Notes: generated from the letters alone by a model not told the origin. Positions 24,095 to 59,759 are shown, counted from the first letter of the stretch. The stretch is DNA of 64,000 nucleotides from Amphiscolops sp. MND2022 (GCA_964187785.1 OZ076409.1:30382001-30446000), one strand, 5' to 3'. Numbers and translations are program-made.

Positions 24095-24113
24095 AATCTT
24101 GCTTACTGTGCCA
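24095..24113 (-). promoter_or_regulatory. Primer binding site of element B (tRNA-Ser-like)
   Basis: TGGCACAGTAAGCAAGATT abuts the 5' LTR and resembles the complement of tRNA-Ser 3' ends, allowing for G>A decay. Confidence 0.6.
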
Positions 24114-24347
24114 TGTTGTATTCTAGACTTTTAGGATGAAACAGTGTACCAAAATAACTTTTTTCTATGGCTCAACGTATAGCATAGTACAAATTAACAT
24201 AAAGTGATATAGCATAGTTTTATATCAAATGTTCTAGCAGGTATTGTCTATGACCGAAACTCGGTAGAGGTTAACTGTCTAATTTGGTAACTGACGGATG
24301 AACCGTATAACAAATAGTTTCCACAAAATTTAAATCTGATAATTTCG

Positions 24348-24682
24348 TCAGCCGCGAACTCCAATTCCTAATTTCCAGTTACATTATCCATTTCCAAATC
24401 CATTATCACTAGCATTCTACATTTGTAATTCCATTTATTTCAATTGTCTTCGACTTTCGTTGCTGACTCTTCTTCCTCTCTGGGTCGATCCAGTATCTTC
24501 CTTCTCCAGCCGATCTTCAGCCGCGAACTCCAATTCCTAATTTCCAGTTACATTATCCATTTCCAAATCCATTATCACTAGCATTCTACATTTGTAATTC
24601 CATTTATTTCAATTGTCTTCGACTTTCGTTGCTGACTCTTCTTCCTCTCTGGGTCGATCCAGTATCTTCCTTCTCCAGCCGA
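24348..24682. repeat. Direct tandem duplication, 169-bp period
   Basis: TCAGCCGCGAACTCCAATTCC occurs at 24348 and 24517, and the copies look identical. Confidence 0.95.
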
Positions 24683-35705: not shown

Positions 35706-37664
35706 GTCTTCAAGCGTTTGTCTGTTGGCTGTGCTGATGTTTCTGAACGTTTGTAACGCTCCCTTTCTAAGAAGTGATTGATTTTCATCTGCCCAGACAT
35801 CTCTGGCTGCATCTTGATCGTTGTATGGAAAATATCTTCGAGCAGCTCAACTTTTTCACTTTTTCCATCGAAAGTCATTGTGCCAAGTGAGCTTTTGGGC
35901 TGTTGGACGATTCTGGAGACTTGCCAAGACGTCAGCTAATCTGTTGATCGGCTCTTGTTCAGCTACTGGCATGACTCTTTCTTGTGCTGGGATTGTTGTA
36001 TCTAGCATTGAATTGTGGTCATCGTGAGATTGGTTGGGAGTTGTTCTGGATGGCACACGTCCCGTGAGAAACTCAGGAACCCGAACTGGAGTTTCTTTGT
36101 CTCATTTCACCATGTCATGAGCATTGTCTGTATTTTCATCACAAAGACGTCTACGGAAAGGCTCACTTCTAGAACTACTCCTGGTTTCTGACTAAGATTT
36201 TCTTCGGAGTTACGTTCCGGGCTCTCAGCTCGGAATACTGGGCTTCCTACTGGAGTCACTAAACTCACTTCCTTCCCTTTCTAAATGCTTACCTCCCAAC
36301 ATGATATCTAGATTTTCTAAATCAGATAACATTTCTGCTCCTCTAGATTTTCTCGGAATACTGGGCTTCCTACTGGAGTCACTAAACTCACTTCCTTCCC
36401 TTTCTAAATGCTTACCTCCCAACATGATATCTAGATTTTCTAAATCAGATAACATTTCTGCTCCTCTAGATTTTCTAGCTTTTTTCTGTTTTCTAGTGTG
36501 GTAGGCATCGAGAAATCCTGATTGTAATCTTTTCTTAGAAAATCAGATTTGAATGTTTCATAGCGTGTGAATGGTAGTAGAACTAAACGTATTGTGTCTC
36601 AAATATATATCCTTGAAGGAGTGACTTTCACGGTTTTTGTAATGTTGTCTGAACGAAATAATATTCTAGTTGTGTTTTACAAAACAGAGAGTCGTATTGT
36701 TGCAGGTGATAAATTCCTAAAAGGCACATGACTAGGGTGAGCGGTAAACGTTCACTACTAATACTGCCTTTTATTGGCGGTGTCAACGTCATCAAAGCAC
36801 TTTAGGAATTTATCATGATCGGGCTGAGAAAAACACATCATCTGAGCATAAACAGCAATAAGTACCAATACCACAAATATCATAATGGCATTAGAAATAT
36901 GTGTCAACATCTTTAACCACGCGCCTAGGCATGTGAACAAATGCATATCCGGTTAAATATTGCACTAATTTCATGTTTTGACTTTAGTGTCAAATTGGTC
37001 AAAATAGGACTATATGCGAGAACGAACATACCGCATATCACAATTGATCCAAGGGCCGACACATCAATGATAGAATCTCCAAATAATAAATCATTACTTG
37101 GTAGTCCTTATTCACAGTAATACACAAAAGAAAGCAACTTAAGTACTATTTGGACAGATTTTTATTATTATTAGTAAAGTGGCACACTACACGGGATTGA
37201 AAGAATAGATGGCCAGAATCGGCCATTTGACTGGTCTTACTTTATTTGTCAGCTCTAATGAGCCACTCGGGCGTAACTGGTTCATATTAATAGAACTCTA
37301 AAATAACACTGAAGGTACTGCACCGTGATTGGCTAAATTAGCCATGGTAGGCAATGCTGCCGAGAAAGGACGTTTCCGCATTTGATCACGTTTCCTTTTT
37401 GCCGCTTTAGGCATTTATCTCATCTTTGTATTTATCAATCTTTGCAATAACTTTACAGTGAACTTAATCATGTATCAACAGTCAACAGACTTATAAAATA
37501 ACTATAGCAACCGTGTTTCCAAAATGACTCAACAAGTAAAATTGATTAGCTATAAGAGTTTACTAGTTTTGTATTTCATTAAATGGGGAGGGTTCCAGGC
37601 GCTATTTTCTGACCATCTGCGGTTGTAGTTATTCTTGTGCCGTCACAGGCGGCAGCCTGCGACA
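35706..37664 (-). mobile_element. Duplicated gag 5' fragment (35706-36112) plus LTR (36113-37664) of family C
   Basis: 35706-36225 repeats 33961-34487. The PBS reads TGGTGAAATGAG. The right end GCCGTCACAGGCGGCAGCCTGCGACA is the reverse complement of the solo LTR start at 9603. Confidence 0.85.
36229..36476. repeat. In-frame 123-bp tandem duplication inside the LTR Gag-leader ORF
   Basis: CTCGGAATACTGGGC occurs at 36229 and 36352. ORF 36225-36455 repeats MLSDLENLDIMLGGKHLERE... Confidence 0.95.
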
Positions 37665-39003: not shown

Positions 39004-41790
39004 TGTTACGGTTTACTAATGGAGTGTTGCTTGGGACAGTCGTTTTCGTTTTGATAGCGGTCGAAGTTAGAGTCATGAAGGCAAGTTTAGCTTCAGAGTC
39101 GGAATCTCCGATGTTTAGCAGATCAACTATTTCCTTGGCAGTAGGATCTATCCGTTCAACTTCTCCGTTGGATTTTCGGCTGAGATTTTAGTGAGATCAG
39201 ACATGATTCCCATTCTGTGGGACGTTTTAATCTTGTCGAGATTTTCCAGTTGTACTCCTGGAGACTTGCTGCGACCGGCTATCAGATTTTCAGTAGGATT
39301 CTTTTCGGTTATTGGAGTTTGAAGATCTCCTGAGACTAGTTCCTCAACACCTTTGCTTTTCTAACTTCTAGTTGTCTCTTTCAAAGAGAAGTAGGTTTTT
39401 TTCGCAAGTTTGAAGTCAACTTTGACGTTTTGTCTACGTTAAGAAAACAATTAACAAAGGTAGTTAACAGTGTCTGAACTTTTTCTCCAGGTATAAATAT
39501 CTTCCCACCATCATTTGTTCCTCACTTGAAATTCCTAGGTACCCTAAAAATTGGATTAGTTCACTTAAAAACCTAGCTGATTCATATCATTTCAGTCCTG
39601 CATCCCACAATCAGGTATTGAAATTCTTAGTTGCGGCGATTATTCGTCAACTTTGTTGAAATCCAAATTGTTGAAAAGTCCTTACTTCCTGTTTGTACAG
39701 TATATTGGCGGTGAAATAAAAATCGAGTTAGACTGCCCTCATTAAAAGTACGCTGGCGTGAACGTGAGCAACTAGTCAACTTCCAGTTTGAGAAACCAGA
39801 AGGATCGAGACAAAAGTGTGATTAGCAAAGTTTGTCACGAGACTAAAACGGATGGGAAGGAAGGTTGTCTCGAAATTTAGGTTTAGGAAATATGGAGGAA
39901 GAAATGATGCTGAAGTTAACTAGGCATCCATTAAGAGGCATCCGTTATAATTATTTGCTTAGATTACATACTTGTATTCTGACAACTACTTTCAACCAAA
40001 TTTGTTGTACCATTTTGGGTGTTCTTTTTCTTTCAGGCAGTATGATATCCGTTGGGATTACGGATCTAAATATTGTTTTAAAAATTTTTTTAGGTTGAAG
40101 AGTTATTTTCCTTGTTGGATTTCATGTTCTCCTTTTGAGATAGATATTGGCAAGGAGATTATCCAAGAAACAAAACCGGAAACGAAAATAACCGTGCATG
40201 AAATGTGAGACCGGAAGTTTCAGTTTGCAAACTTACTTGATTCGAATTCTGCGTTGCGTTTACGTTACTTTTTGTAGTCTAAATTCCCTTACGAAGGTTT
40301 TAGCTGTGCGGTAAGTAATACTTAAACTAACTTACAGCACTTTACAGTTTTCATGGTCCCGCTATGCATTCTTTCTATGCGGACCATATTGGCAGCAAGT
40401 GCACCAGCCAGGAGCATGCTGTGACCGGGTGCCTCTCGATATCGTTATGATTGACCCAACACAATGAGGGATTTCTCCCATTACCATAACTGGGCGCTTC
40501 CTGTTCCTTGTCAGTCTTTGTGACGAAGAATGAATTTGACGTCCACCAAACGTACATTTCGTGATCGAGCCTTCAAGAAGAATTCCATAGACCCTTTCTA
40601 TCTCCGTGATAGTGGGTTCCATCAAGTCGTCTAGTTTGTCTACTTCGTTTAGTGGGACTTCGAGCAATTTGCTTTTAACTGCAAATGTCTCCCTTCTTTC
40701 ATATTTTTCGGGACTACATCCACCCAAAATTCCTCGGTGATTCTTAGGTTTCGAAAGAGGACGCTAACAATTTCGACACATTCAGATCGAAGAATAAACT
40801 GGCTAACTCTGCTTCACTCCCTTTCAAGGCTTCCGTAGACGATTCGCTTAAATCAATTGTCCTTACCATGTTCAGGGTTAGAACTTTTATGGGGTTCTTT
40901 GTCGATTATCTTCTTCATCTGACGGGATGTCGACGACGAATATTGATTCACTCATTTCACAGAATTAGTTTGATGACAGCTTTGATGGTTAAGACGACTG
41001 TTTTCTCTGGTTATTTGAACGTCAACTGGAAAGTCAATTTTATCGCTTGCCGTATTTTTGATAGCTTCAAATTGACTCATTTTCTTTCTCGTTTCCCTTT
41101 GTTTTCATTCTGAAAGCGTCTTGCTTTCGTCTTTGCTGGGATTGGCTGAGGCGAAGAGAAAATATTCTATTTGTTCTTTTCCTTTCCTTCTCAGCTATGT
41201 CGTTATGACGTTATAAAGTTTTCACATCGAGGTTGCGCCAGTATGACGTCATAACTCCCACAATGGTTTTCTTTTATTTTTGTTTTTACTTCTTCAGATT
41301 TCTTTGGTTCGAAAATGGAAGATGTTCTCCGATCAACTGCAGCTAGTTTTTTTTAGTGGCAACGAAACTGTCTATTCCTGGACTGAGTACAACGTCCAAC
41401 AGTCTGACGTTTAAGTTTCGCGTTCTGGGCTGAAATTTTTCAGACTTTTATGGGTAAGTGGACTTTTTTTTGGTGATCAGCTTTTTAGTCTTACCCGTAT
41501 TCCTGCCGCGTCTGATTCGGATCTTGGTATCCGATAACTCAACCTGTTGAATCTACTGTCGAACCGGGATGTAAACTTGGAGACTCTACGGGTACTGCTG
41601 CTCCTTCTGTTGCTGCAGGTTTTCCTTCCGTGGAGTTTGTTGCTGAAAGCTCCGGTTCTGTGGATCTACCAGAAACTCAGGGAAGGAGTTGAGACTAATC
41701 CCCCTGCTAATGAGGAAAGAAGTTGGTGGCGGCGGCTTGTGAGACTTTCTAGTATTGTTTGACGGTTGACGAAGAGATAACAGCGACCTC
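39004..41790 (-). mobile_element. Truncated giant Gypsy element F: 3' LTR (39004-40426), ORF3 remnant and 5' exons of the antisense gene
   Basis: TGTTACGG...GCTGTGACC ends resemble element D. The LTR Gag-leader remnant aligns with 56658-57054. On the plus strand there is TTCTTCAG|..ATG at 41315, a donor GTAAGT at ~41454 and an acceptor at ~41488, mirroring 46361-46632. Confidence 0.65.
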
Positions 41791-42947
41791 AGAAAACCAT
41801 TCTAGTTCTCTAATTAGTCACAACACAAAAGCATTCTCATTAGATTGAGCGCAAACATCTCGACCATGCGACAACGCTATTGGTCCGCTAGGCAAGTAAT
41901 ACAAAAGATCAGCCTCAGAGCGTGAGGCATGCATTACGTTGAAACTATTTGCTTAGAATACATATTTGTGTTCTGACAACTACCTTTAATCAAATTTGTT
42001 GTACTATTTTTTATGTTATCCGTTGGTATTACGAATCTAAATGTTGTTTTCAAATTTCGCTCAGGTCGAAGAAGAAGTAATTACATTCTTGGATTTCATG
42101 TTCTCATTTTGATCTTTAGATTAGAATGTAGAGTATCTATCCAATCAATAAAACGGAAAATAAAATAACTGAAAGTGAATTGCCAGGCCAGAAGTTTTAG
42201 TTTGAAAACTCATTTAGTTCCAATTCCGCGTTGCGTTTACTTCAACTTTTGTATTCTATATTCTCCTGCAAATTATTTAGCTACGCTGTGAGTAAAATTT
42301 AAACTAACTTCAAAGGGTTTAGAGTTTCCATGGCCCAACTTCTGCATTCTTCTATGCAGACCTTGTTGGCAATAAGTGCACCAGCCGGGACCGGGCTGTG
42401 ACAGGGCACCTCTCGATATTGTTATAATTGACCCAGCTCAATCAAGGTTTTCCCTCATAATCTTTATCAGGCGCTTCCTGTTCCTTGTCAGTCTTTGTGA
42501 CGTAAGTGCACTCCACCTCCACCACCTGTACTTTTTGTAGTCTTGCATCTTTTTCTATCTGCATGATTGAGTTCGATCAAGTCTTCTAATTTTTCTACTT
42601 TGTTTGGCGGGACTTTGGTTAGGGGGACGTGTTTGTAACGTCCCTCAGAGTAGTGACTGGGGGCAAAGGAGGTAGAAAACGCGGGTTGTCAAGCTCCTCA
42701 AAATAATCGTCATCAGCAGTTTCAGGCAATTGGCTTTCAAGTCCAAATGTCCCCTCTTTGTCTATTCTTTTGACGAGAAGATAGTCGATAAGGTGTAGAA
42801 AGTTGGAATTTGAATACAGACTGGCTTTTGCAATCATTCGAAAACCATGATGAAGCCGTTGACCACTCGCTGCCCGAGTGATACCCGATTGAGCTTGATA
42901 TGTGTATTGCATGTAAGGCTGAAAATGTACTCAGCTTTAGTAGTTCT

Positions 42948-45292
42948 TGTTACGACTTACCTTCGTGTCAAGGTCGTAAATTTTGAGGAGAGTTGATTCG
43001 TACTGTTTTCGTCGGGGTGAGGAAGCTTTTTTCATTTTCCGTTTCATCTACCGTGTTATTTCGTTCATTTTCTCCTGTTTCAGAGCTCAGAAGCTTCAAA
43101 ATTTCTGTTTGAGATTCTAAGAGGATTTTTTTAAATCTCAGAAGTAATTTCTTCCTTCAAGGAGTCTCTCAAACTCTCCAAGGAGCTATTTTCTATCCTA
43201 GGGGACTTTGGTCTTGACGGACCTGCTACGTCTATATCCAGATTTGATGAACTCGAGTTCTCCATATCTATTGGTGAAATGAAACCTTCACTTACGATGT
43301 CTTCAGCATCTCGCTGAGTGTTTTTTTGGGTTCTTGTTGTTGACATATTGATGAAGAAAGTTTGGATTGAAGAATTCAATTTTATTATTCAAGATTTTTC
43401 AACAAGGTTTAGTTGGATTGAAATAGATGCAAATGAGATTTAGAAAAGACTGAGTCCCTTAATCATCAAATCCTATCATATATATTTATACCCTCCCAGC
43501 ATCATATGATCACGACTAGAACCCTAATTTTCCTCGAACAGTTAGTCATTTCCTGTTTCATGGATGCAAAAATCACGAAGATCCCAAATTTGCGACAACA
43601 ACTCGTCAAATTTTAAGACACGACGGTTTTATTCTAGCATCAGTCATCGACCATGATCATATCATTTCATCCCGGCGTCCTTTTGCTTCCTCCCAAGCAG
43701 GAAGTAGATATTACTTGAAACTGTCACACCGGAAATGCTTCCCTGTTTTACTGCTTTGGTTCGCGGGAAATTGACGCTGAGATGACACTGACGTGAACAA
43801 CTAATACCTGATTTTGAAATTCAGCATGAGGAAAATATGACTAATTTCAAAATCATGATTACTTGAGCGGTGCTAGGAACGATAATTTTATGAATTTGGA
43901 CTCTTTCTTTTCGTTAGGAATAAAATTAGGATTACGATATTAAAACATTCATTAACAACATTTTGGCCTTGTCGCGACAAATGCGACAAGTTGGCAACGT
44001 AACTTTAACAACATGAAACTTTAAATACAGCAACATAATATTAGTACATTCTGGTGTTAATAACTGTGCTCACAGAACAATGGTAAATGTTGTACAAAAC
44101 CAGGTCAATAAAAATCAATGGATAGCGAATACTGGTCCTCAAGCATTTGGTTTACAAAAATACTACGGGTATTAAAATACATTCATTTCTCTGTTCACAA
44201 GGGCATAAACTGTGACCTTTATGATTAGTGGATAACAAAATCCCAATTAAAGTTCATTTCTCACTGTAATTTTAGGTGTACGATATTTTAAATGACGAGC
44301 CACTGACGCAGATTCGTTAGGACACAATCTTTTAATTAAGATCGTAATAAAATGTGTATTTCCTCCGTATTAGTTTCATTTAGATGAGAAATCCATTTTC
44401 CTATCCTGGAAAAGTTAAACAACTGAAATTGGTAAGTTTTGACATCGTTTTGGCGTAGTTTTCTTAACTCCATCGAGCGGATTTGTCTAATTCCTCTAAT
44501 TTCATGAACTTGTCGTCGTCACTAGGACGCATTTTCTTGGCATAACTAAGTTCTGCCAAGTTTCCCGCATCGTTGACGCATATTTTAGGACAAGTATTCA
44601 GTTAGTTACCAGTATCGTGACGTCAAGTTGGCGGAAAATTCTACTGAGGCCTTTAATAAAGGCGGTTGATTGGAACGATTTTCTGGTAAGCATATGCGAG
44701 GTACTGACGTCACACGATATCTCTTCAAAACTTGTCTACGCCTTGTTGACGACAAACGTACAGGTATACTTATTTCTACTGCTGTTTTGTTTACTTAGCG
44801 CAGTGCCGTCGTTCTAATCCGCATTAATTGCCGTTCAAAGTGCAATTAGGTTATCTTTCTTAGAAAAGGCTAAATCTCTTCTGCGTGCCATCTCAATGTA
44901 TTTTCTATTTTAGATCTGATTAATGTTACTTTTGGAGATGATTTTGGAGATGTTTTCATTTAGATTAGTATATGCTCTCTTTGTTTTAAAGCATGTTTAG
45001 ATTTAGTTTTCAGGTGGCGAATGTTACTATTTTGACGTGACTCAAACGTCTTACCGTAAATGTGTGAGAACATTTTAGCTCATTTCATTCTCTATCTTCT
45101 TTTTTCATTTTGAAAGTTGCGCGAAGCGGACGTATGTTTCCGTATTTACAGTCACAGTTTATTTTAGTATTAGTTCGAGAGTTTTAAGGTAATATCCAAA
45201 ATACCACCTGGGGAATCTCAGACTACACCCGTGCCCTCTTCCGATTCCCACTCGTTTGCAGTGACAGTCCAGACCGGGAGCGGGCTGTGACA
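42948..45292 (-). repeat. 3' LTR of element D (2345 bp)
   Basis: Collinear with 56649-59047, with scattered substitutions and indels. Confidence 0.95.
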
Positions 45293-45907
45293 GGGCCACT
45301 CCTCTGGGGAAAGCACTTCTCCAGGGTTGTCGTGGCATGAACGTCAATGGAGTTAGTCTCGACTCAAGGTCTTCTGAGCCACCAATGCTGCGTTTCTCTT
45401 CGAGATCGTTCAAGGGGTTTGCGGGATTAAAACTGATCTTGCCGGGGGTTCCCGGCGGTGTAATAAAATAAGAGGCAGAGTCTTCTTGTTATAAAAGTAT
45501 TCCGCCACCCTGCTGCTCGTTTTTGATTCTGCATTATCTGGCGATTCTTCTACGACAAATACGTCGGAACACATGCTCTCGTCAGGGCTTTCCGGGCTGT
45601 CTGGCAAGTCTTCATTCTGTCTTTCTGTGGGATTCTTTTGTGGGGCGTACGTCTCCGGCTCAATCGATTCTAGGCTAGAGTTAAGCCTCAACTTTTTGCA
45701 GCTTGACTCGAGGGAGTCCGTCGAAATGTCGAAACATTCCTCTTCGTCTGCTGTAGCTTCGGCCGATGAATGGGACACTTGTAGTATTACCCTGTAGCTA
45801 GGGATAATTTCACGAGGAAGGGGCGTAGAGGCGCGTTCCAGAGTTCTTTCCTCATCCTCGCTTGAAGAGATGTCTATAAGCTCCTAGACGTTTTTGAGGC
45901 TATTCAT
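45159..45907 (-). pseudogene. Acidic Ser/Glu-rich sense ORF3 of element D, running into the 3' LTR
   Basis: MNSLKNV*ELIDISSSEDEERTLERASTP... continues as ORF 45410-45778 and then 45159-45413. Confidence 0.5.
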
Positions 45908-46379
45908 TTTTTGTTGCTTTTGCTGATTCATAGGCTGCAGAGCTGCTGAATTTCACTTGTTGATTGTTCCACAATAAATTTAGGATTAATTGGGATTAAG
46001 GAGACTATGGGACAAATCCTTCCATTCTGATTGGTTAATCAATCTTTTTAATCCTTTTATTCTGCAAGTGTTGACGTTATGTGGACATCGCATTTTTATT
46101 GGCTGCAAATTGGGATAGTTCACTTAGCCAAACTTGTCAACGTTTCGCTGACGTCACTTTCGGTAGCTTAGCTAACTTTTAGAATTTGTGACCGTTATGA
46201 TGACGTCATTGTAGGTTACAGGATTAGTTTCTTAACCCTAATAACCTTTTTGTCGACGTTATGCCGACGTCAATTTCGTTGGTAATTGCCAACTTTATGT
46301 TTCGTCACCGTTATGATGACGTCAGTTTCGGGTGTTTTCCATCTGTAGTTTTGTTTTTCAGATTTCCTGTCACTTTGCA

Positions 46380-49300
46380 ATGAATCGCAATTTTCCTCCT
46401 GTTCGTCATGACGCTGGCGCGCAGAGTGGGAACGAAACTCAATATCTGTTTTCGGAAGCAGATGTTTGAGACAGCGAGACTGACCTTTTCAGTCGACCAG
46501 TACTTGGTAAGCTTGTTTTCCCCCTGTCCTTTAAGTTTTTCTGAATTATACCGTTAGCAGTTAGGCCTTTCCTGTCTTGGTATTTCCACAGCTTAGATTT
46601 TCTTGACTCGTCGATGTAGGGGTTTGTTTTAGCTGCTGTTTCTACATCTTCTCCTGTCTCTGGTCCTTCCGCTCCTGGGATGGTCTTTCTTCCGGCAGAT
46701 CTTTCCGACATTGGAGTTGTTCCTCTTGAAACTCCAGTTGTTCCTGAGGATGGTGCGTTTGCTTTGGCAGTCGATTCTGTTGTTGACAAGCCTGTGGTTT
46801 CCCAAGATGAGGACCTTGATGTTCCTTTGGCCACCCTGGATAACAATCTTGTGGCAGGAGTCTCGCCACGTGAGGTTGGACGCGGTGGAGACGAGATCGT
46901 TGGAGTCACAGAGACTCATGTAGGTGAGGCTCCTCCCCGGCCTTCGAGAAAGAGAAAGGAGGAGAGGGACAGAAAGACGATGTTCCTGTCGCAGGTGTGA
47001 ACCAAGCTGAGTCTCCTCGATTTTGTTCATACCTCCCCGACTTTGAGCGGACATTTGGGAGTCGCAATAACTCTCCTACTGTTAGGCGCGGTTAGTTGTA
47101 CCTGCGTTTCCTTCTCTGTCTTGTTATATCTTCTTTCTTTGTTTCGCTCTTTCCTTCATTTCTACTGAGGGGGGAGGGGGGTCTGGTGAATGGAGTTTTG
47201 CAGGTGGTTGATAGTGTTTGTATTATTTTAGTGCATTTAGTCACTTCTGGAGAAGAATCGTCATCCAAGCGACGTCGGGTTCAGTTCGAGCCTCCACTTG
47301 CTCCTGCGCGGGATATTACTTTCAGTGTTGTAAGCACTGATGAAGAAGCAGCTTGTACTCCTGTGTTGCCTTGTACTCCTCAGCAAGCTGTGAGACTGGG
47401 AGAGGTGGTTGCATCTGAATTGGAGAGTCGGACTGTGGAACCCTTTGTTGTTCGTGAGTTCTCTTTTAATCTTCGTTGGCCTTGTTGTTGGGTGCGTTTC
47501 GTTGTTGAAGTTTTATCGGGGGGTTTATCCGTTTTGGTACTGGGATAATTTCGAGTGATTGTTGTAGGTTTCCAAGAGCTTGTGAGTCGTGTGGAGGCAA
47601 GTCTTGAAGAAGCAAGGACGCAACACCGGCAGCGTACGAGGGTCTATAGTTCACGAAATTGACCTCGGCGAGACATGCTCGAAGATAACCCGATTTTTGA
47701 GCTATTTGTGAGTGGTTCCAGTCCTGGCAGCGATAAGCACTTCTACTGCATGATATGTCATCGCGATGTGTCTATGGAGTCCCATGGTGCTGGTGAGTTC
47801 AGTCGTCACTTCTTTGGGAAGCGGCATTGGTTGCTGGACATTACCTACCGGGTCCAGAATAATATGCCCACATACAACCGCCTGATGGACCCTATGGAAT
47901 TGAGTGCAGCGAAGATCAACGAGTATATGAAACGTCCTCGCAAAGGGAAAGCTGAAGGCTGTACTCAGGTTGATTCATCTATTCCTCTAATGACACTGAT
48001 AAACTGTTTGTTGGAGCTCCTTCGCAGTGGTGGCAACTACACCCTTTTAAGGAAATTGTGGGGCTGTTTTCGGGCAATGCTGGGACCCGAAGATCTCTTG
48101 TTCATTTTGAATTCGAGCCGCCCAGAATCCTTGATTAGTGTGTTCTTTTGATTGTTTGGGGGGAAGGCGAAGAAGAAAAGAGAAAAAAATTGTCATTTTT
48201 GGGTGTAATTGTGTGGTGGTGATTGGGGTGGGGTGAAAACTGGCACCTAATTGTACTTGTTTTGTTTGTTTTAGTCGCTCATCTGTCAAGCATTGTTCCC
48301 TCGAGCATTGCGTTCTCTTGTTGCAAAAGTTTCTGCCTTCCGGGATTACAGCATGTTCTTCATTGACGATAGCGAGACGCATAGTTGTATTGTGCAGACA
48401 TGGGACGAACATGAGTTGTTTTGTGTATCCGTGCATGTTGAAGCATCTGGTTAGTGTGTCCCCATTGCAGAGGTGGCTGGCTTATCCCGCGTTGTGGATA
48501 GTTTGGCGTCATGTCAGTTGCCCGTGTCTTGTCAAGGAGGAAGCCCGGCCTTGTTACGTGTTCTCAGTGAGAACCGTATTGATGGTCGTCAATTTGTGCA
48601 CTACGAGACATTTTCTGAGGTAGTCTTCTTGCGTTGTTACCGAGAAGCTCATCAGGAAACCTTCGGGATGCTCGAAGTGACTTCAAAAGTCAACTTCTTG
48701 ATGTTGCGGTTGCGCGGAGCCTTGCAAGAGTCTTGGATGACCGATGTGCCAACTCTTCGTCGTTGTGTTGTCGCCGGCCGAGTGTCATTTGTTGATCTGC
48801 GTGGAGTCGTCGCTGAGTTGATTCCTATTTGGAAGACAGTTCGGGAGTATATGTGCTTCACTGGTTCTCCACATCTCAAGAGTTCAACTGACAGGGTAAG
48901 TTGTGTTGGCTGCTTTGTTTTCTCGTTTTTCCTTTTCTTAAGATATTTGGCCGGATTTCTTTCCTGTTGCCGGTAAGGGATTCTAGTGGGGGGGGTATCC
49001 TTTTTGGTTTCCCTGTGGGTTATGATGTGTTATTTTTGTTTTAGATGCGTGGCATAGACTGGATGGTCTACAGTGAGAATACGAATATTCTTCGTCTCGG
49101 GCTGCTTGACCATGTACTTGCTCTCTGTGAGTCATCAGTTTGTATTGCGTCTTTTTGTTTTGGGTCTATCAGGTGTTGTTATTCATCGCCGTATTTAGAT
49201 GCAGTGTGTTTCACGAAACAACAGACTGGCAGGAGTGATTACAGCTTTCACTCGTATATGGAGTTGTGTCAGTTTGTTTATTGTTTGCTTTCACGGAGTT

Positions 49301-50445
49301 GCAAAGTGCCATCATTGCCTGATCTCAATTCGTGGGAAGCTTTTATGGACGTCTCAAAGATAGCTTCCTTTGACTCTGTTTCATCAGCCGAGTTTTTGCA
49401 GAATTATGACTTTGGATCAACTGTGTGTCAGTTCAAGGGTGGCAAGGGCCCTGATTTCTTGGAACGTTGTCGGGAGTTTTTCGATCGTCTCGTGCAATTG
49501 ATTTTGGCGCAACCCTGCGTCTCTGCCGACTCTATGTGTGGACTGTACTGTTTCTGTCCCGGGTTGTTAATGGAAGGCGATGATAAGCACGTTTTTGATC
49601 TTTTCCGGAAATTAGTTCGAGTGCTGGAACGTAACAGTGCGATTTCTGATATTGAATCGAGCTGTGCTGTTGAAGAGTTCCTGACTTACGTGGTTGACGC
49701 CCGTTCTCGACATGTCAAAATCCAACCAAAGCGCTGAGGAGGTTGAAGATGTCGTGGCTCATCTTTTGGCGGACTACAGTTTCCTTGCTCGTAAGAATTT
49801 GTGCCGGGTCTTCAAAGTATGTTGTCTTGTTGCAGTGAAGCCTCGGGGAAACTTTCCTGCAGTAGAGATTGATCTCAGTGACTGCGAGGTTCCCAAATTG
49901 ACTGTGTTGTCTTGTATTCGTGGCGTGCAGAGTTGCGTGTTATCGGCCATTTATAAGCAGAAGTCGTTCTTCACGAAGCATACTATGGATCGAGTCCGGG
50001 ATGCTGTGTCAAAAGCGCGCAATTTTATGTCTTTGTCGTCTTTCAATCCATGGGAGAGGATTTGCGGAGATGGGTAGGGAGTGTTCGTGTCTCGTTACAT
50101 GAAGCTGTCCAATGACTATGTTGCCCTTCAGAAAGGAGATTCTTATGAGCGTCTTCGTTCTGCGAATAAGCGTGACCGTAAATTGCAGTCTGCCGGTGGC
50201 GATTCTTCGACATTGTCGTGTTCTGGGAGTGCTTTATCCTCAGTTGTCGGACACCCGTTTCTGGAGTTGAGGGAGGATCTGCTGCTGGGCCTTCCAATAG
50301 TCGACGCCTCCATAGCCGTATAGGATCATTGCTTGGTCGATCGCGGAGTGAGAAGAAGAATGATGGAACAACTACCGTAGTTGATAAGAAGAAGTCAAAC
50401 AACTCTGCCTCGAAAAAAACTGTTTCTGAATCCATAGGAAAATAA
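46380..50445 (+). pseudogene. Antisense spliced accessory gene of element D: BED/hAT-like zinc-finger protein
   Basis: ATG at 46380. Phase-compatible introns at 46507-46632, 46924-47240, 47454-47567, 48134-48274 (donor mutated to ATTAGT), 48896-49044 and 49127-49198. The finger reads FYCMICHRDVSMESHGAGEFSRHFFGKRH. A few stops and frameshifts remain. Confidence 0.85.
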
Positions 50446-50699
50446 ACTCTGTCGCATTGGACTCATCTTTAGTTGTATTTTAGTCCATTTGTAAAATGAT
50501 TTATTGTAGTCAGATTGTTACTGTCCATTTGGTCTTTGTGATTGTGATTTATGGATGCTATTAGTTTCAGAACAGTTCGGAAAAAAGGATATTGTTTCTC
50601 CTCAGTGAAGTTACGCTAGTGCAGCCTTCGGGAAAAGAAGACAACAAAAAAATCCAAGTGTATGAAGGAGTTGTAGAATACTCTTTAATTGAAAAATCG

Positions 50700-53600
50700 T
50701 CAGATCGGTTCGGTCTGGACTCCTGATAATCTATTTTCATATTGAGCCGTAGTCATAGCGTCAAGTCGTCTAAAGTCAGGGTTTGCGTTAGTTTTAGGAT
50801 TAGGTCGCAGGTTACAATTCGCTGTTTTCCTCGGATTATATCCAACAACTGTAGGCGGTGGACTTGGTGGAATAGGTGGACTTTCAGTGGGTGGGGGCCG
50901 ACGTGTATATGGATTATCTCCCACGTCTGTAGTAGGGTTTGAAAATTCCGGAGACGGCGGCGCCACGTCATTTGTGACTTCGATGTAATTTCAAGGCATT
51001 TGTGGCGTCGTGTCTTCGTCATTCCTATTTGTCACTTCTTGTATTTCTACGTGTTGGTTTTTTTCTGTACTTTTTGATGTTTTGTGTTCACCAATCTGCT
51101 TTCCAAAATCCATTTCCCATGATACCGCGTACCACTCATTGTGCGACACCTTAACGCCTGGATCGGGAAGATATTCGTTTGCTCGTACTGTGACGTCAGG
51201 CATGCGTTGTTCTGGCACGTATGGGCGTATTCGAATTCTATGTAGCGTCTGTGTTTATCTCGTGCCAAGTTTTCGTATTGTTAAGTTGTTATTTGATAGT
51301 ACTTTTATCACGATATACGGTCTTGTCCAGATGCAATCTTGGAACGCAAACTTTGTCCATTGGTTGTCAGCTTTCGGGTTGAGAATATAGCAGTAGTCGT
51401 TTACTTTGAGCGGAGCCGCCGACGCTTTGCGGTCGTAATGTTTTTTGTATTTGAGGTAAGACAGCATGATATTGTCCTTTGACGTTGCTCGCACTTCGTC
51501 AATTTGTTTTTGTAGTTGCTCTGCTATATCCGAGTTAGGCGTTGTTTTCCACTTTGGCTTGATGCCTAACTTTAGGTCTAGAACGTTGTAGGGTATGCGT
51601 CGGTGGAATACTGTAGATGGTTCACAACCTACGGTTTCATGATACGTTGTATTGTATTTCATGACTGCGATTTGGACGTATTTGTGCCACATTGAGCGTC
51701 TTTCACCCGTCGATATTTTTGGTACAGTTTTGATTGAAGCGTGCGTTCTTTGTAGAATTCCAATCGTTTGTGCATGCTTTGTAGACGCGTAGCTAATTTG
51801 GAATTCGAGTATTTGCGTTATTTCTGCGACAATTTCTGACCTGAATTGTGAGCCTTTATCTGACAAGAATAAGGTTGGTAGACATGCATGTCTTGTCATG
51901 ACGTCTACAATGCATCGTCCAATTGTTTTCGCTGTGACGGTCTGCGTTGGATATGCAAATAAATAACGTGAGAACACATCGATCATTGTGAAAATGTTCT
52001 GATATCCTGCAGAGTTTGGTAGATTCGGCAGTATGTCGATTTCGAGTATGTCTTCCGGTCCCAATACGTGTTCTGTATTGGTGATCCTTTACGGGCGGAT
52101 TTGGCTGTTGTTGATTCCTTTGTACTTGATGCAATCTTCGCAATGCAATACCCATTGTTTGACTTTTTTTGCTAATCCAGGGTAGTAATATTTCGATCTG
52201 CATTCTTGGATCATTTTGGTGACTCCTGGAGATGCTTTCCCATTTGTCCGTGGATGGCTCTCAGCAGTCCTGTGATCAGGTGTTCGGGGATTAATATTTG
52301 GTGATGTGGGACTTGTCCACATTCCCCGTAGTATTTTCGCATTAGGATTCCGTCTTTGACTATTAGCCTATTTTCGTGGACTAAGAGGCGTTTAGTTTTC
52401 GGGTCTATTTGTAGGAGATGTCTATCATATTCTTCAAAGATAAATTTTCTTTTGATTGCCTTGAAGACCAAATCTGAGTCTTGTTCAACTCTGATGAGTG
52501 CGTCTTCTTTGATTGCCCCAAAGGTGTATGATGCCTTGTTTATTGGGATTGGGGTAGTTTCTTTGATTGATAGTTTTATTTTTGCCATCTCTTCGTCACG
52601 TGCATTTTGCCTCGCTCGTTCCTTCTGCAGGAGGATCTCTTACTGTGGATTGTAGGTTTACTTGTATTGGTTGGGTCGTAATGTCGTTCCTGATTTTTAG
52701 TTCGACTCTTCCCTTATGGTTGAGGTCAATTCTCGATAGGAAATCAGCTGCGATGTTTTGCGTCCCCGCCACGTGCATGATGTGAAAATTGAATTGCAGT
52801 ACGTAGTCACATGCATTCCATAGTGTAGGGGAAAGCGCTTTTGTTTGGACAAACCTCGTTACTGATCTGTTGTCAGTCATTACAAGAGTTGGTAGGGTTG
52901 TTTCCCACAATATGTGGCTGTATTCTAAGAATGCGTGATAGATTGCCAGAAATTCTTTGCAACAAAGTGACAGCATCAGTTGTGCTGGTGAGAATACTTT
53001 TGATCCAAATGCTACAGGAGCAAAAGATATCTTTTTGGAATTGAGTTTTTGTCGTTCTCTTCTTCGATCATTAGCGCATATCCCGAGGCGCGAAAACTAG
53101 AGTCTGTCATTAGGACGTATTGTCGTCCTGTGATTTGTTCTTTGAGAGCCAATCCGCATGCCTGCGCCAGCGCTGCGTTGATCGCTTTGTAGTTATTTAG
53201 CAATTCCTCTGTGACCTTGATTTGTTTGTCTGCTTAGAGTAGCTCGTAGAAACCGAGTAGTTTTTCTGACAACCGCGGAATATAGTTGCGGTAGCAGTTG
53301 ACAAAGCCTATGTATCTTTGTACCTGTTTCTTTGAATTCGGGAATCGTTGGTAGGGTTTGCTAAGAATTTCTGGATTTTGTGGTCTTGGGGGCGATTGCT
53401 TGTGGGGTGATCGTTCTTCCAAGGAATTCGACCTCGGTCACTCCAAAATGGCATTTGTCGATTTTTAGTTTAAGTCCTGCTTGTCTGATGCATTCAAACA
53501 CAGCTCGGATGTTTCGGATCAGTTGCGTCATGGAGTTGGCAGCTATTCCAATATCGTCTAGATATTGCGCGCACTGGTCAACTTTGATTACTTTATCCAG

Positions 53601-56600
53601 ATATTCTCTCATGAAGCTTGAAAATGCTGACAAAGCTCTGCTTAGTCCTTGTGCCAGTCGTTTGTATGCGAAGGTTCTGCCTGCAAAGTTGAACGCTAGC
53701 ATTTCGATGGATCTTTGATCCGCCATTTGTAGGCAGTGATATGCCTGAGAGCAATCTAATTTACAGAACATTTTTTTCAGCTAGGTGTTGGGCTGCGTCT
53801 GACAGGGTGCTGACTGGACGATTGTTGTTGATGTAGTCGTCAGATTTCAGTGCGTTGATTTTTCGTAGGTCGACAAGTAGACGTAGTTTACCATTTGGTT
53901 TACGTTGTGCGAAAATCGGGCTGGCATATTTTGAAAATGGTAATGTCGTGATTATGCCATACCTATGCATGAGCGCTAGTTCGACTGTTAGGTCTTCTTT
54001 CAGGTTGACTGGTACTGGTAGGCTCTGTGTATACATGGGGCGTTCGTCTTTTGGCGTCAGTTACACTTTGAAGCTGTTGTTGATGCCAATGTCAAGTCTG
54101 TGACGCGCAAAAATGTCGTTGTATTCAACAATCGTTTGCTCAAGTTGTTTTCTGTCATTTCCCTCAATCTGCGATCCTTCCCATTTGAACATGTCGAGGA
54201 ACTCTTTCCTTCATTCTGGATCTTTGGTGGGGTCGAGTTGTTTTTTCTTTATAAGTTCTCTGATTTCTTTTAATATTAGCCGTTGTATCGGCGTGTGTTC
54301 ATCTTCGTTTCCCGGGTTTTCGGGTGTTAGGAACCAGAGCTTTTCGTCGTTTTGTTCGTTATTTGTGGATTTCATGAGCTCATTTACATACATGTGCGTG
54401 TCATCTGGGTCTTGTAGCGTGGTTAGTGTTGCAACATCTATGGGTCGTATCTGTTTGTTATCCTCTGGCTTAAGGATTTGCAATTCTGCCAGTTTGGTAT
54501 GGTTTTTTATGGTGTGAGGGAAATCTGTCAAGTTGGCTATTCGGAGGTTGATACAATTGTTATGAGCTGTGGCCAGTGCTTGTGCAACGATGATGGTGGC
54601 TGTTTCATCAAACTATGGTAGCGGTTGTACTACGCCTGTGATGTCGGTTGCATTGGTGGTAATGACTTTTGCATTTACTGTTGTTGTTTGTTGTGGTAGC
54701 AGCGTCTGATTTCCTTCGGCCATGATTTGGAGCGGTTTGGGGTTACATTTTTTCTTTTCGTCCTGTTATGGCTAATGTCATTTCAACGTGTGGGAAGGTG
54801 ATGGTCCCGTTGGCAGTATCTATCACTGCTTGGTGGTTTCTCATGAAATTCAGATTATGGGGAATGACGTCTTTGATAGGATGACAAAGGTGTCGGTGAA
54901 CGTGTATGTTCCATATTGAATTGAATATCAGCAGTGGCAATAGGTTGTTCTGGTTGGGCGTTTGCGCATTCGATCTTGAAAGGAGGTTGTGGGTATTACT
55001 TTATCACGCAATTGTCACTGTTCATTTTAATGGCGTTGTAATCAGACCATGACATGGCGTTGATGAACGCTCCTGAGTCAACGAGGCCGTCCATGATTAT
55101 TTCGCCGAATTCGAGTGGCAAATACAGCATTCGTCTTCTGTTCTTGAGGACTATAGTCGAGTGCAGAGGTATGTAGGTATCCCCATCTTTTTCGGTTATG
55201 TATTCTTTGATCGAATTAAGTGAGGTGGGGATTTCGTCGTGTAAGATAGATAACCTTGTGGGGCCGTGGGTATTTGCTTCTTTCGTTTGTGGCGGTGGGT
55301 GGTCGTCGGTGACATTTTCATTTTGGTCTATTTGGGTTGTAGCTGTTTGTTCTTTGGTGGGGCAAGGGAATTGTACGATGGGGTTTGCATTACGTGTACG
55401 GTCGTCTCTGTAGTCTTTGTCTTGAGTGTAGGTTTCTTCCCTTTCTGGTTGTGGTATTGGTCTTCTTTTTGAGGCGAGTGCTTGTTGTCTCAACCAGTCC
55501 TCTGTTGGAGTGCCGACGCACTCTATTGTTGAGTAATCTGTGTAAGTAGTGGGGGGATCTTTTGGTGGGTCTATTACGCAGGCGCCCGAAAGGCAGGCGC
55601 GACGTAAATAGTTTTTTGATTCGTCTCCGAAATTGGTTGTCGATTGTTGGGTGGAAGTTTCCGTGTTCCTTTTTCTTTGGAAGTGTCGTTTAGGTCTCGG
55701 ATCGTTTGCCGAGTTGGCTCCATTCCAGCAATCTTCCGTTTTGTGAGGTTTTCCGCATGTATCACATTTAAGTGTGGTGCCTGCGTTATTTTTACTTTGG
55801 CCGTTGTTTTTCCTTGTCTGTTGCCATTTATCCCTTCTCAGTTTTTGACATTCTGCTTTGAAGTGGCCAATTTTATTGCAGTAGAAGCAGTATCTTTTTT
55901 GGTGTTCTGTGTCGTGTTCTCGACTTGTTTTGCCTCTTGTTTTGTTTGGGCAGGTTCTATTTTTTTTGAGTGGTACCAGAGTCACTTCATCTGGCGCTCC
56001 AAGGCCGTTGAGTCGCATTTCCCGCTCCAAATGGAGTACTATATCATTGTATGGTTTGTCCTCAAGATACGCCCTGTTGAGGATTTTCTTTACATGATCT
56101 GGCATTTTCGCGTAGATTGCTTTGTCAATAAACTGTTGAGCTTCCGAACCGAAAGCCTCTTTCGCCATTTTTGGAGTACGTCCAGAAATTCATGTAGTTT
56201 TTGTGTTGCAGGATCAAATTTGAGTGAGTCCCACTCGCATCTGGCTTTTGCCATTGACAGATAATCTCCAAATCGACGTTTAAAAATTGTCACTATTTCG
56301 TCTAACGAGTCCTTCTTGGAGTCTTCAATGTTGCCGAACGCCTGGAGGGCGTCTCCTCTTAGCAACGATTGAAAGTAGTTGATTTTTGTGGTTCCGTGAG
56401 GTGCGGATACATTTTTATGTTGTTACGAAACAAGTCTTCAAAAAGGTCGAATTTGTCGGATTTCCCATCGAAAGTTGGGAGTGATGCCGTTAAAACTTTT
56501 GGCATGGGTAGTGTGGTGGAGTCAGTCTTTTCTGCTCGGAATAGTGTTCTGGCCACCGTTGGGCGTTCTTTTGCCGCTGGTTGACCCTGGGACCTTATTT

Positions 56601-56649
56601 TCGTCGTCTTTGGGTGGTTTGTGGAGTCGGTTAGGACTCCTGTCACCAT
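50700..56649 (-). pseudogene. gag-pol of element D
   Basis: Knuckles CFYCNKIGHFKAEC and CDTCGKPHKTEDC, protease LVDSGA, RT QYLDDIGIA, RNase H LMTDSSF/KEFLAIY/TDN, integrase HHCC plus D,D(35)E (E>Q) and a GPY-like WTRPY. There are multiple frameshifts. Confidence 0.96.
56636..56648 (-). promoter_or_regulatory. Primer binding site of element D (tRNA-Leu-like)
   Basis: TGGTGACAGGAGT follows the LTR terminal CA directly. It is one mismatch from the tRNA-Leu-type PBS TGGTGTCAGGAGT. Confidence 0.7.
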
Positions 56650-59047
56650 GTTACGACTTACATTCGTGTCTCAGGGTCGTTTTTTTGTGTAGAGTTGATT
56701 CGTACTGTTTTCGTCGGGGTGTGGAAACTCCTTGTTTCATTTTCCGTTTCATCTACCGTGTTATTTCTTATATTTTCCCCTGTTTCAGATCTCAGAAGCT
56801 TCAACATTTCTCTTTGAGATTCTAGGAGGAGATTTCTAATCTCAGAAGTAATTTCTTCCTTCAAGGAAGCTCTCAAACTCTCAAGGAGCTATTTTTTATC
56901 CTAAGGGACTTTGGTCTTGAGGGACCTGTTACGTCTATATCCTGATTTGAAGAACGCGAGTTCTCCATGTTTATTGGTGAAATGAAACCTTCACTTACGA
57001 TGTCTTCAGCATCTCGCTGAGTGTTTTTCCTTTTTTGGCTTCTTGTCGTTGACATTTTGATGAAGAAAGTTTGGATTGAAGAATTCAATTTTATCTTTCA
57101 AGATTTTTCAACAAAGTTGAGTTGGATTGAAAATAGATGCAAATGAGTTAAATAGCTACTGGTTTCTGCAATTTAGAAAAGACTGAGTCCCTTAATCATC
57201 AAATCTTATCATATTTATACCCTTCCAGCATCATTTGACGACAACTAGAACCCTAATTTTCCTCAAACAAATAGTCATTTCCTGTTCATCAATGAAAAAA
57301 TCACGAAGATCCCAAAATTGCGACAGCAACTCGTCAATTTTAAGACACGACGATTTTATTCTAGCATTAGTCAACGACCATGATCAAATCATTTCATCCC
57401 GGCGTCCCTTTGCTTCACCCCAAGCAGGAAGTAGATATTTTTTCAGTCTGTCAAACCGGAAATGCTTCCCTGTTTTACTGCTTTGGTTCGCGGGAAATTG
57501 ACGCTGCGATGGCGCTGACGTGAACAACTAACACCTGATTTTGAAATTCAGCATGAGAAAAATATGACTAATTTCCAAATCATTATTTTTGAGCGATGCT
57601 AGGAACGATACTTTTATGAAATTGTACTCTTTCTTTTCGTTAGGAATAAAATTAGGATTACGATATTAACATTCATTAACAACATTTTGGCCTTGTCGCA
57701 ACAAATTCGACAAGTTGGCAACGTAACTTTAACAACATGAAACTTTAAATACAGCAACATAATATTAGTACATTCTGGTGTTAATAACTGCGCTCACAGA
57801 ACAATGGTGAATGTTGTACAAAACCAGCTCAATATGAATCAGTGGATAGCGAATACTGGTCCTCAAGCATTTGGTTTACAAATATGCTCCGGGTATAAAA
57901 ATACATTCATTTTTCTATTCTCAAGGGCATAAACTGTGACCTTTATGATTAGTGTATAACAAAATCCCAATTAAAGTTCATTTCTTACTGTAAGTTTAGG
58001 TGTACGATATTTTAAATGACGAGCAACTGACGCAGATTCGTTAGGCCACAATCTTTTAATTAAGATTTTAATAAAAAGTGTATTTCCTCCGTATTAGTTT
58101 CATTTAGATGAGAAATCCGTTTTCCTATCCTGGAAAAGTTAAACAACTGAAATTGGTAAATTTTGACATCGTTTTGGCGTAGTTTCCTTAACTCAATCGA
58201 GCGGATTTGTCTAATTCCTCTAATTTCATGAACTTGTCGTCGTCACTAGGACGCATTTTCTTGGCATAACTAAGTTCTGCCAAGTTTCCCGCATCGTTGA
58301 CGCATATTTTAGGACAAGTATTCAGTTAGTTACCAGTATCGTGACGTCACGTTGGCGGAAAATTGGAATGATTTCTACTAAGGCCTTTAATATAGGCGGT
58401 TAAATGGAATGTTTTTCTGGTAAGCATATGCGAGGAAGTGACGTCACACGATATCTCTTCAAAACTTGTCTACGCCTTGTTGACGACAAACGTACATGTA
58501 TACTTATTTCTACTGCTATTTTGTTTACTTAGCGCAGTGCTGACGTTCTAATCCGCATTAATTGCCGTTCAAAGTGCAATTAAGTTATCTTTCTTAGAAA
58601 AGGCCAAATCTCTTCTGCGTGCCATCTCAATGTATTTTCTATTTTAGATCTGATTGATGTTCCTTTTGGAGATGATTTTGGAGATGTTTTCATTTAGATT
58701 AGCATATGCTCTCTTTGTTTTAAAGCATGTTTAGATTTAGTTTTCAGGTGGCGAATGTTACTATTTTGACGTGACTGAAACGTCTTACCGTAAATGTGTG
58801 AGAACATTTTAGCTCATTTCATTCTCTATCTTCATTTTTCATTTTGAAAGTTGCGCGAAGCGGACGTATGTTTCCGTATTTACAGTCACAGTTTATTTTA
58901 GTATTAGTTCGAGAGTTTTAAGGTACTACCTTACCTTATATTAGTAATATCCAAAATACCACCTGGGGAATCTCAGACTACACCCGTGCCCTATTACGAT
59001 TCCCACTCGTTTGCGGTGACAGTCCAGACCGGGAGCGGGCTGTGACA
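56649..59047 (-). repeat. 5' LTR of element D (2399 bp), including the Gag leader from 57054
   Basis: Direct repeat of 42948-45292. Minus-strand TATAAATA lies at ~57212-57219, and the ORF MSTTRSQKRKNTQRD... reaches the LTR edge. Confidence 0.95.
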
Positions 59048-59759
59048 GTTCTCCCTGGTTGTTAACTTGCTTGGGGATTGTACCAATGAATTCATCATCG
59101 GAGATATCCGGGTTATTAATTGTAAACCTTCAAACTAGAAGATAATTGTCCTGCGCCGTCGATAGAACGGCCGCGTTGGCGTTTTCGCGCTAGAGAACAA
59201 AGTGTTCGTTCTACGTTTTGATCACCTCGTACGTCCTGCCAATATGATTTGAGGATTTTTTTCTCCGTTATAGGTGTCGATGACGGAGTTGGTTGTCCCA
59301 GCGGTATACCCAATGAGTCTTCTTCATCGCGAGCGAGCAGGAAACAGTCTCAATTTATTTCGGAATTGTTCATAAATTTAATTGATAATGCGAAGGAAAG
59401 TTAATATAAGTGCTTCGTTTGAAGTATAATACCGGAATGAGAAATCCTTTTGATGAAAAACATTCACCGCGCATGTGTGATTGGGAAGGTTTTAGCTGGC
59501 GGGCTGATGACTTCCATTACGTCAAAGTATTAGTTATTGAGAAGAGTTCTTCTTTGGTATTGTTTCTTCTTTGACTAATTTTTTGAGTGTACTGTATCCG
59601 AGTGTTTGCTTGCGAAAAACTACATGGCAGAATCGACAGATTAGGATACGGCTCAGTTTTTTCGATCACAGAAAAGTGAAGTGTTGGAGAGTAAAGTTGA
59701 GTCAGTAGTGAGGGATAGAGAAAAAGTGGAGTAGAGAATCGACAGCAGTTTTTTGAAAG

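Follow-up and report, generated by a model that had tools for sequence, protein, structure and literature searches.

Retrotransposons with long terminal repeats (LTRs) are commonly portrayed as gag-pol machines devoid of introns. The locus analysed here raises the question of whether such an element can also carry and maintain a multi-intron gene of its own. Within a 64,000-nucleotide stretch of the genome of Amphiscolops sp. MND2022 (GCA_964187785.1 OZ076409.1:30382001-30446000; hereafter the window, i.e. the whole stretch that was analysed), positions 42948 to 59047 are occupied by a Ty3/Gypsy element, inside which a first-pass annotation had placed a zinc-finger gene with introns on the strand opposite to gag-pol. 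Our analyses indicate that this copy belongs to a very abundant animal Gypsy-type lineage keeping a predicted seven-exon zinc-finger gene on the opposite strand.

Results

A predicted seven-exon gene opposite to gag-pol

The genome searched comprised 1.07 Gb, in which the window corresponds to C1:30382001-30446000. Comparison of the DNA from 47600-50100 with this genome returned 50 matches, corresponding to copies at 85-91% and to a large group at about 66%, the latter family having long open frames. At the fetched loci the same plus-strand frames were found tail to tail with an integrase (INT) on the other strand. Comparison with these other copies, by homology to which the exon coordinates in the window were placed, bears out the predicted antisense, intron-bearing zinc-finger gene between pol and the 3' LTR, and the limits first proposed for it, 46380 and 50445, coincide exactly with the start ATG of the first exon and with the stop codon. 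Located on the plus strand between INT and the 3' LTR, the gene is predicted to consist of seven exons and six GT-AG introns, and to code for a product of about 1130 amino acids (aa), a figure representing the sum of the exon lengths including exon 0 (Table 1). Its stop codon overlaps an AATAAA at 50441.

In the sister copy L016, the coding blocks join through GT...AG introns with pyrimidine tracts (90, 113, 174, 148, 123 and 66 nt), the last junction being resolved by an acceptor common to both families. Exon 4 is preceded by AG in 34 of 35 copies (GG in L005) and followed by GT in all 35, among 43 distinct copies with a match to this exon, and ten further splice dinucleotides are all kept in 7/7 sister copies. 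Exon 0 was found within the conserved 'intergenic' stretch upstream; its ATG, its phase (1) and the length of the intron behind it (90 nt) agree in six out of six sequences (the window copy plus five others, two families being represented), and the frame stays open across its junction in all five copies other than the window. The spliced model is uninterrupted in two of eight copies, L016 (1085 aa) and L018 (1080 aa), both counted without exon 0; the six other sister copies contain frameshifts or stops, yet all ten splice dinucleotides are kept in them. Between L016 and L018 the exons are 89-95% identical with no frame-breaking gaps, and the introns 79-85% identical with gaps that are not multiples of three. 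When families are compared, exons 3 and 4 can be aligned over their full extent, whereas only 25-50% of the intron length is alignable.

The window copy of the gene is itself a pseudogene. Its exons joined straight give 35 stops, stops occur in exons 0, 1, 3, 4 and 6, exon 6 is frameshifted near 49717, and exon 3 is short by ten codons and has lost its donor, which reads AT. The earlier view of the antisense gene as a part of the lineage is therefore supported in a corrected form, in which the copy in the window is decayed and non-functional.

At another locus, L053 (G000:C12:12142800-12147200), exon 4 is read through the following intron region into exon 6 in a 735-aa frame (1770-3977), in the translation of which exon 5 is not recognisable and the intron part is hydrophobic filler. 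Two copies of the antisense region, L003 and L004 (G000:C11:4157899-4163851), lie 3.47 kb apart in the same orientation, an arrangement that suggests a tandem or rearranged element.

A constant and selected part of the lineage

The first-pass annotation had taken the gene to be a stable accessory module and not an independent insertion, which could be expected to have terminal inverted repeats of its own or to be missing from most copies. An exon 4 protein query against the genome yielded 6184 first-look candidates, and all 150 of the 150 scored had E <= 7.8e-83, nearly all over residues 1-205/207. The L016 integrase query yielded 25263 first-look candidates, of which 92 were scored and 86 corresponded to full-length places. 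In at least 57 of these 86 places, exon 4 is found at a distance of 2335-3262 bases on the other strand, a lower bound obtained by crossing the INT places with the 221 distinct exon-4 places listed; the other 29 were unmatched among the exon-4 places listed, and the one of them that was fetched, L055, also carries exons 4 and 6. The only inverted repeats found bounding the antisense region were two short pairs judged to be at chance level, and a reading of this region as a nested DNA transposon was rejected. The missing terminal repeats, the fixed distance to INT and the purifying selection described below thus agree with a stable module.

Selection was assessed by Nei-Gojobori estimates of the ratio of nonsynonymous to synonymous substitution (dN/dS) between L016 and L018, which, being taken between repeat copies, report selection on the active lineage only. 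Values were 0.53 for exon 1, 0.33 for exon 2, 0.15 for exon 3, 0.235 for exon 4 and 0.195 for exon 6, next to 0.10 for the sense accessory open reading frame (ORF) described below, 0.07 for the integrase and 0.04 for the reverse transcriptase (RT). For exons 3, 4 and 6 dN/dS thus lies at 0.15-0.24, and the frames opposite the exons of the antisense gene gave 0.66-0.76. Between families, the proportion of nonsynonymous differences (pN) was 0.13-0.25 and that of synonymous differences (pS) was saturated. By these estimates the antisense gene is under purifying selection, and the comparisons as a whole show the predicted gene to be regularly present in the lineage and under selection, its splice signals being conserved.

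Continuous homologues and an intron-poor form

When 1.84 billion representatives were searched with an exon 4 profile, 348 clusters matched at E <= 0.001. They include continuous proteins, namely P0249, of 890 aa and from a 4-kb contig, as well as P0227 and P0223, from contigs of 245 and 369 kb, respectively. Along 788 residues the spliced model and P0249 are collinear, with 30% identity and small gaps only; the model is also collinear with P0227 and P0223, with no insertion at the junctions and no gap replacing an intron. All homologues found were unnamed ORF fragments from ENA records, and a homologue search set for greater lengths returned no longer homologues of the exon 6 protein.

An intron-poor form is numerous in the same genome: the search gave 11115 first-look candidates, the 51 that were scored all had E <= 1.1e-260, and the open frames measured 862-918 aa. 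In L054 (G000:C3:52201900-52210600), a continuous frame of 910 aa lies antisense and tail to tail with the RNase H (RH) and INT region; the position of the exon 2/3 intron is kept, introns 3-5 are not present, and beyond the continuous frame there are an acidic upstream frame and a sense ORF. The occurrence of this form in the same antisense layout indicates that the accessory gene predates the split of the intron-rich and intron-poor clades, and that introns were gained or lost within it.

The antisense protein

The predicted protein has a low-complexity N-terminal part containing a basic stretch; a single CCHH zinc finger, an alpha/beta core and an all-helical domain follow, and the tail is basic. 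All four ligands of the finger (C-x2-C-x16-H-x5-H) are invariant in 7/7 aligned sequences, and neither the finger nor the LLRSGGS..LLR.LW motif varies between the window family and the forms at 30% identity. In the alignment of exon 4, the only invariant columns are C52, R101, L144 and R145, and the position after the first strand varies among D, E, S and N.

AlphaFold models had a mean predicted local distance difference test (pLDDT) of 54 for exon 6 alone and of 57 for the L053 read-through ORF, comprising exon 4, the intron-derived part and exon 6. In the latter model exon 4 would fold as helix, three strands, helix, strand and helix (pLDDT 60-72), and the helical part reaches a pLDDT of 86-97. 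Foldseek returned nothing at E <= 0.001; its weak list, below the noise level of the tool, consisted mostly of RNase H-like folds (integrase cores, the C-half of UvrC, Ty3/MLV RNase H, Argonaute and Hermes transposase), and a wide VIA structure search gave generic helical matches only. In the Atlas, the best value was 0.87 for exon 6; exon 4 reached 0.90, with C-terminal domains of CATCHR-type tethering complexes sharing 144 features with it, a match taken as a lead only.

A second accessory ORF and the block between the two genes

A sense accessory ORF of 256 aa (ORF256) lies beside the 3' LTR in seven of eight copies of the 66% family (217 aa in L017), and has no Pfam family match. It spans the polypurine-tract region and terminates within the 3' LTR, which contains its last ~100 nt; in the window, the tblastn match reaches 45192 and recurs at 58947-59048 in the other LTR. 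The polypurine-tract region beside the 3' LTR (45293-45315) is only moderately purine-rich on the element strand (AGAGGAGTGG) and falls inside the coding frame of ORF256.

Between the ATG of ORF256 and that of the antisense gene lies a block with 80% identity between families, versus about 70% for the coding exons, which apart from exon 0 is closed in all frames (11-20 stops per frame). It contains TGACGTCA sites at 46149, 46201, 46266 (7/8 bases) and 46317, within two repeats of ~120 bp, as well as ATTGG, read as CCAAT on the opposite strand, at 45989, 46030, 46098 and 46109, which we take to correspond to the CRE (CRE-like sites) and CCAAT consensus sequences, respectively. An invariant TTTTCAG is found just upstream of the antisense ATG. 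These features point to a putative bidirectional internal promoter facing both accessory genes.

Anatomy and classification of the element

Repeat finding identified a long direct-repeat pair (42948-45292 and 56649-59047), the two members of which, once globally aligned, share 2206 matches against 127 mismatches (94.6% identity) with 15 gap events. Both begin with TG and end with CA, and GTTCT is found on both sides. On the minus strand, the translation of 54996-56189 contains a D-S-G protease motif, and pol is ordered protease, RT, RNase H and integrase, the integrase being last as in Ty3/Gypsy elements; at least four frame changes interrupt pol in this copy, as revealed by tblastn with intact sister proteins, and Pfam scans found no chromodomain in the integrase. 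The best solved relative of the pol of an intact sister copy is Ty3 (7q5b, E 3.3e-37). Given the LTRs, the target duplication, the minus-strand gag-pol and Ty3 as the relative of the sister pol, 42948-59047 is therefore a 16.1-kb Ty3/Gypsy LTR retrotransposon in reverse orientation, in an old and decayed copy, and the single unit initially delimited by LTRs and target-site duplication is confirmed. Regarding the primer binding site (PBS) also claimed, a PBS-like sequence starting with TGG, as expected of a site complementary to the 3' end of a host tRNA, abuts the 5' LTR; ARAGORN found no tRNA genes in the window, and Rfam gave no match on it at the gathering threshold.

Table 1. Features of the element and of its accessory genes (window positions; window copy unless stated)
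Feature	Position	Strand	Remarks
Target-site duplication, left	42943..42947	.	GTTCT
3' LTR	42948..45292	-	2345 bp, TG..CA
Sense accessory ORF (ORF256)	45192..45919	-	acidic, serine-rich; one frameshift; tblastn
Conserved non-coding block between accessory genes	45960..46379	.	candidate bidirectional internal promoter
Antisense gene, exon 0	46380..46506	+	start ATG 46380; in-frame stop; then 90-nt GT..AG intron
Antisense gene, exon 1	46597..47090	+	low-complexity Ser/Pro/acidic; stop and frameshift
Antisense gene, exon 2	47232..47453	+	contains basic KRRR stretch
Antisense gene, exon 3	47568..48133	+	CCHH zinc finger, LLRSGGS..LLR.LW motif; stop, 10-codon deletion, donor AT
Antisense gene, exon 4	48275..48895	+	best-conserved part, alpha/beta core in model; one in-frame TAG
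Antisense gene, exon 5	49045..49126	+	27 codons plus 1 base
Antisense gene, exon 6	49199..50445	+	all-helical domain, Ser/Lys-rich basic tail; frameshift near 49717, further stops
gag-protease-RT-RH-INT, Ty3/Gypsy	50742..56670	-	split over several frames; Pfam and tblastn
rve	51255-52088	-	Pfam on stop-to-stop frames
RT_RNaseH	52596-53096	-	Pfam on stop-to-stop frames
RVT_1	53361-53780	-	Pfam on stop-to-stop frames
zf-CCHC	within 54996-56189	-	Pfam on stop-to-stop frames
Retrotrans_gag	56090-56422	-	Pfam on stop-to-stop frames
PBS-like sequence abutting 5' LTR	56634..56648	-	element strand reads TGGTGACAGGAGTCC, starts TGG
5' LTR	56649..59047	-	2399 bp, TG..CA
Target-site duplication, right	59048..59052	.	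GTTCT, same pentamer as left

Other repeats in the window

A second, older element with the same layout occupies 16309-37379 of the window. Its LTR pieces at 16309-17018 and 35111-35698 match each other, 36675-37379 is an additional tandem copy, and its gag, RT and RH frames lie on the minus strand at 30964-33871. Two plus-strand frames of this element, 25160-26647 and 28052-28699, are weakly similar to antisense exons 3 and 6 (exon 3, BLASTP E 0.001, and E 3e-4 with P0249; exon 6, hhalign E 0.006, probability 6%). Nested in it is a small Gypsy-type element (18546-24233) with direct repeats 91% identical to each other (18546-18665 and 24114-24233) and, on the minus strand at 19672-24031, gag-like (Cys/His knuckle-like) and integrase-like frames read by eye; at its edge, a 169-bp unit is present twice in tandem with 99% identity (24345-24682). 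Just outside the left LTR of the 16.1-kb element there are further direct repeats (39943-40525 and 41937-42502), with 74-84% identity and a spacing of ~1977 bp.

Discussion

Alternative readings of the locus

Different scenarios might explain the plus-strand exons. We assign a probability of roughly 85% to the reading in which the window holds a decayed copy of an animal Ty3/Gypsy lineage with two accessory genes between pol and the 3' LTR, one of them, in antisense, having seven exons and being maintained by selection. The plus-strand region might instead be a passenger, a host gene or other mobile element that landed once in a Gypsy copy, as could be imagined from an antisense protein without relatives among known retroelement genes and from the gene transduction known for LTR elements (a passage in PMC7264820). 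A single landing, however, is extremely improbable in view of the same layout in families diverged to ~70% nucleotide and 60-63% protein identity and in the intron-poor clade, the fixed distance to INT in at least 57/86 INT places, the purifying selection on the gene and the lack of flanking inverted repeats. Very improbable too is a gene with no introns, the blocks being either pieces of one decayed frame or chance frames opposite coding sequence; the stops and frameshifts of the window copy, the in-frame reading through two introns in L053 and a splicing pattern deduced from sequence comparison would all fit it, but GT and AG with pyrimidine tracts recur at the same places (34/35 and 35/35 copies), the joins are in frame in 2/8 copies, the introns evolve faster than the exons and contain gaps that are not multiples of three, and the continuous homologues skip exactly the proposed introns.

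Several points weigh against the preferred reading of a selected, spliced accessory gene. Its splicing, start site and polyadenylation site are all deduced from sequence, the dN/dS values concern only the active lineage, and the window copy is dead and gives no sign of present activity of its subfamily. No Pfam match at E <= 0.1 to 1 was obtained for any antisense exon, for 45 exon-6 homologues or for the continuous forms of 890 and 910 aa; searches of solved structures (PDB) by sequence and profile gave the antisense protein chance-level rows only (E 0.5-7, best 0.5-0.9), and Atlas values for the antisense exons did not exceed 0.87-0.90, with low shared-feature counts. The exon 4 alignment shows no conserved acidic triad, with no invariant acidic residue where a DDE enzyme would need one, and a function as a regulator is suggested by domain composition and analogy.

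Comparison with known systems

According to passages in PMC11963269 and PMC7264820, the plant Ty3/Gypsy elements Retand, Grande and RIRE2 are long and have an antisense extra ORF, coding for TRP28 proteins, at the same position and in the same orientation; it is described there in nearly all recently active copies, its function being unknown and a nuclear regulator being suspected. The parallel with Grande/Retand, drawn in the first-pass annotation, stands as regards the antisense position between pol and the 3' LTR, but not as regards membership. The host of Retand/Grande is a flowering plant whereas that of the present element is an animal; their protein is TRP28 (PF04195), a family absent from the Pfam scans of the antisense exons and ORFs; no introns are reported for them ('intron' occurs zero times in the main text of PMC11963269 and PMC7264820), versus six predicted here; and, unlike Retand/Grande, the present element has a second, sense accessory ORF sharing the internal promoter-like block. 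In the host genome we found 146 matches to 7tm_1, the family of rhodopsin-type receptors, over the cut-off and no match to WRKY, though the WRKY control matched nowhere, and a plant host was rejected. A TRP28 relative was also rejected, with no PF04195 match in antisense exons, ORFs or continuous forms. Since the host is an animal, the plant parallel is therefore an analogy and not a membership.

Spumaviruses have an internal promoter and 3' accessory genes, and nef-type ORFs overlap U3. As in these, a sense ORF extends here downstream of pol into the 3' LTR, beside an internal promoter-like block, but no relation in sequence exists, and in the present element a divergent antisense gene shares the block. 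The 3' LTR of human T-cell leukaemia virus type 1 (HTLV-1) drives HBZ, a bZIP protein of small size. The logic of a spliced antisense gene is common to HBZ and, as predicted, to the present element; in contrast, the protein here has ~1130 aa and a zinc finger, with no bZIP family in any Pfam scan, and its likely promoter is the internal conserved block, the first coding exon and the CRE/CCAAT block lying outside the LTR. As described in PMC11963269 and PMC10186651, HTLV-1 HBZ and HTLV-2 APH-2 are minus-strand provirus proteins, made from a spliced transcript and from integrated DNA only, with a nuclear regulatory role.

The antisense protein may descend from a catalytically dead hAT-like transposase, a doubtful lead arising from the structural models. 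The hAT transposases, such as Hermes, have an RNase H-like catalytic core that an all-helical insertion domain interrupts, and domesticated zinc-finger derivatives of them exist. No match to zf-BED, DUF4371 or Dimer_Tnp_hAT was found in the antisense protein, and the hAT transposases have a BED finger whereas the finger here is of the CCHH type with other spacing; the conserved acidic triad and inverted repeats around the antisense region are lacking, and the fold scores lie below the noise level. Transposase activity of the protein is unlikely because no acidic residue is invariant at the DDE positions.

Proposed mechanism and function

Under the preferred reading, the introns of the antisense gene would face the wrong way in the genomic RNA, would not be removed from it, and would be copied into every new insertion, surviving each round of copying because they are carried in reverse. 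The gene would be expressible only from integrated DNA: transcription would start from the conserved CRE/CCAAT block, which also faces the sense ORF, and would be followed by splicing and by polyadenylation at the AATAAA, ~300 nt before the end of pol is reached. This gene would yield a nuclear nucleic-acid-binding factor serving the element. The most likely function, which we propose tentatively and at somewhat less than even odds, is that of a nuclear nucleic-acid- or chromatin-binding factor acting in trans for the propagation of the element; such a factor could control transcription of the element or oppose silencing by the host, much as regulatory accessory proteins do in complex retroviruses. 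A fuller version, in which an invertebrate Gypsy lineage runs a complex-retrovirus-like programme with a bidirectional promoter and an LTR-overlapping ORF, the antisense gene derives from a dead hAT transposase and is necessary for spread, and introns 3-5 were gained, or lost through recombination with complementary DNA, in a gene that spreads solely through reverse transcription of its opposite strand, is unlikely.

The gene might alternatively restrain the element, either through a self-limiting repressor protein or through an antisense transcript whose main role would be to pair with the genomic RNA into a double strand. Were the antisense gene and pol transcribed towards each other, complementary RNA would arise over the ~4-kb antisense gene, and antisense transcription as a regulator is discussed for plant elements and retroviruses in PMC7264820, PMC11963269 and PMC10186651; however, a role of the RNA only does not account for a dN/dS of 0.15-0.24 over ~1000 codons. 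No result speaks against a repressor protein, and we regard restraint as a whole as quite unlikely. The protein could also be an integration or chromatin-tethering cofactor working with the integrase or Gag instead of a transcription regulator, a role that would suit the zinc finger, the basic tails, the possibly transposase-like architecture and an integrase with no chromodomain by Pfam, but that is without known precedent and appears improbable.

Conclusions

Antisense accessory genes are already known from plant Retand elements and HTLV, and the present variant has an animal host, an orphan protein and predicted introns. No animal LTR element with a spliced antisense gene was found in the full-text literature, the repeat databases Repbase, Dfam and GyDB being outside the scope of this search; the little-described status of the lineage is likewise judged from that literature, and its families may have been deposited unannotated.

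Our results describe an animal genome in which thousands of element copies carry a large, selected, antisense gene of an orphan family with predicted introns, and which also holds an intron-poor sister form. They indicate that Gypsy elements are able to keep an accessory gene with introns as part of themselves. The lineage would show by a natural example how introns persist through retrotransposition under the shelter of antisense orientation, and would allow the gain or loss of introns within a mobile gene to be dated copy by copy. A consequence for genome annotation is that gene finders will take the antisense exons for host genes, giving false calls in the thousands. For the biology of the family, the antisense gene provides a new protein family whose role in the retroelement, whether in regulation, escape from silencing or targeting, is testable.

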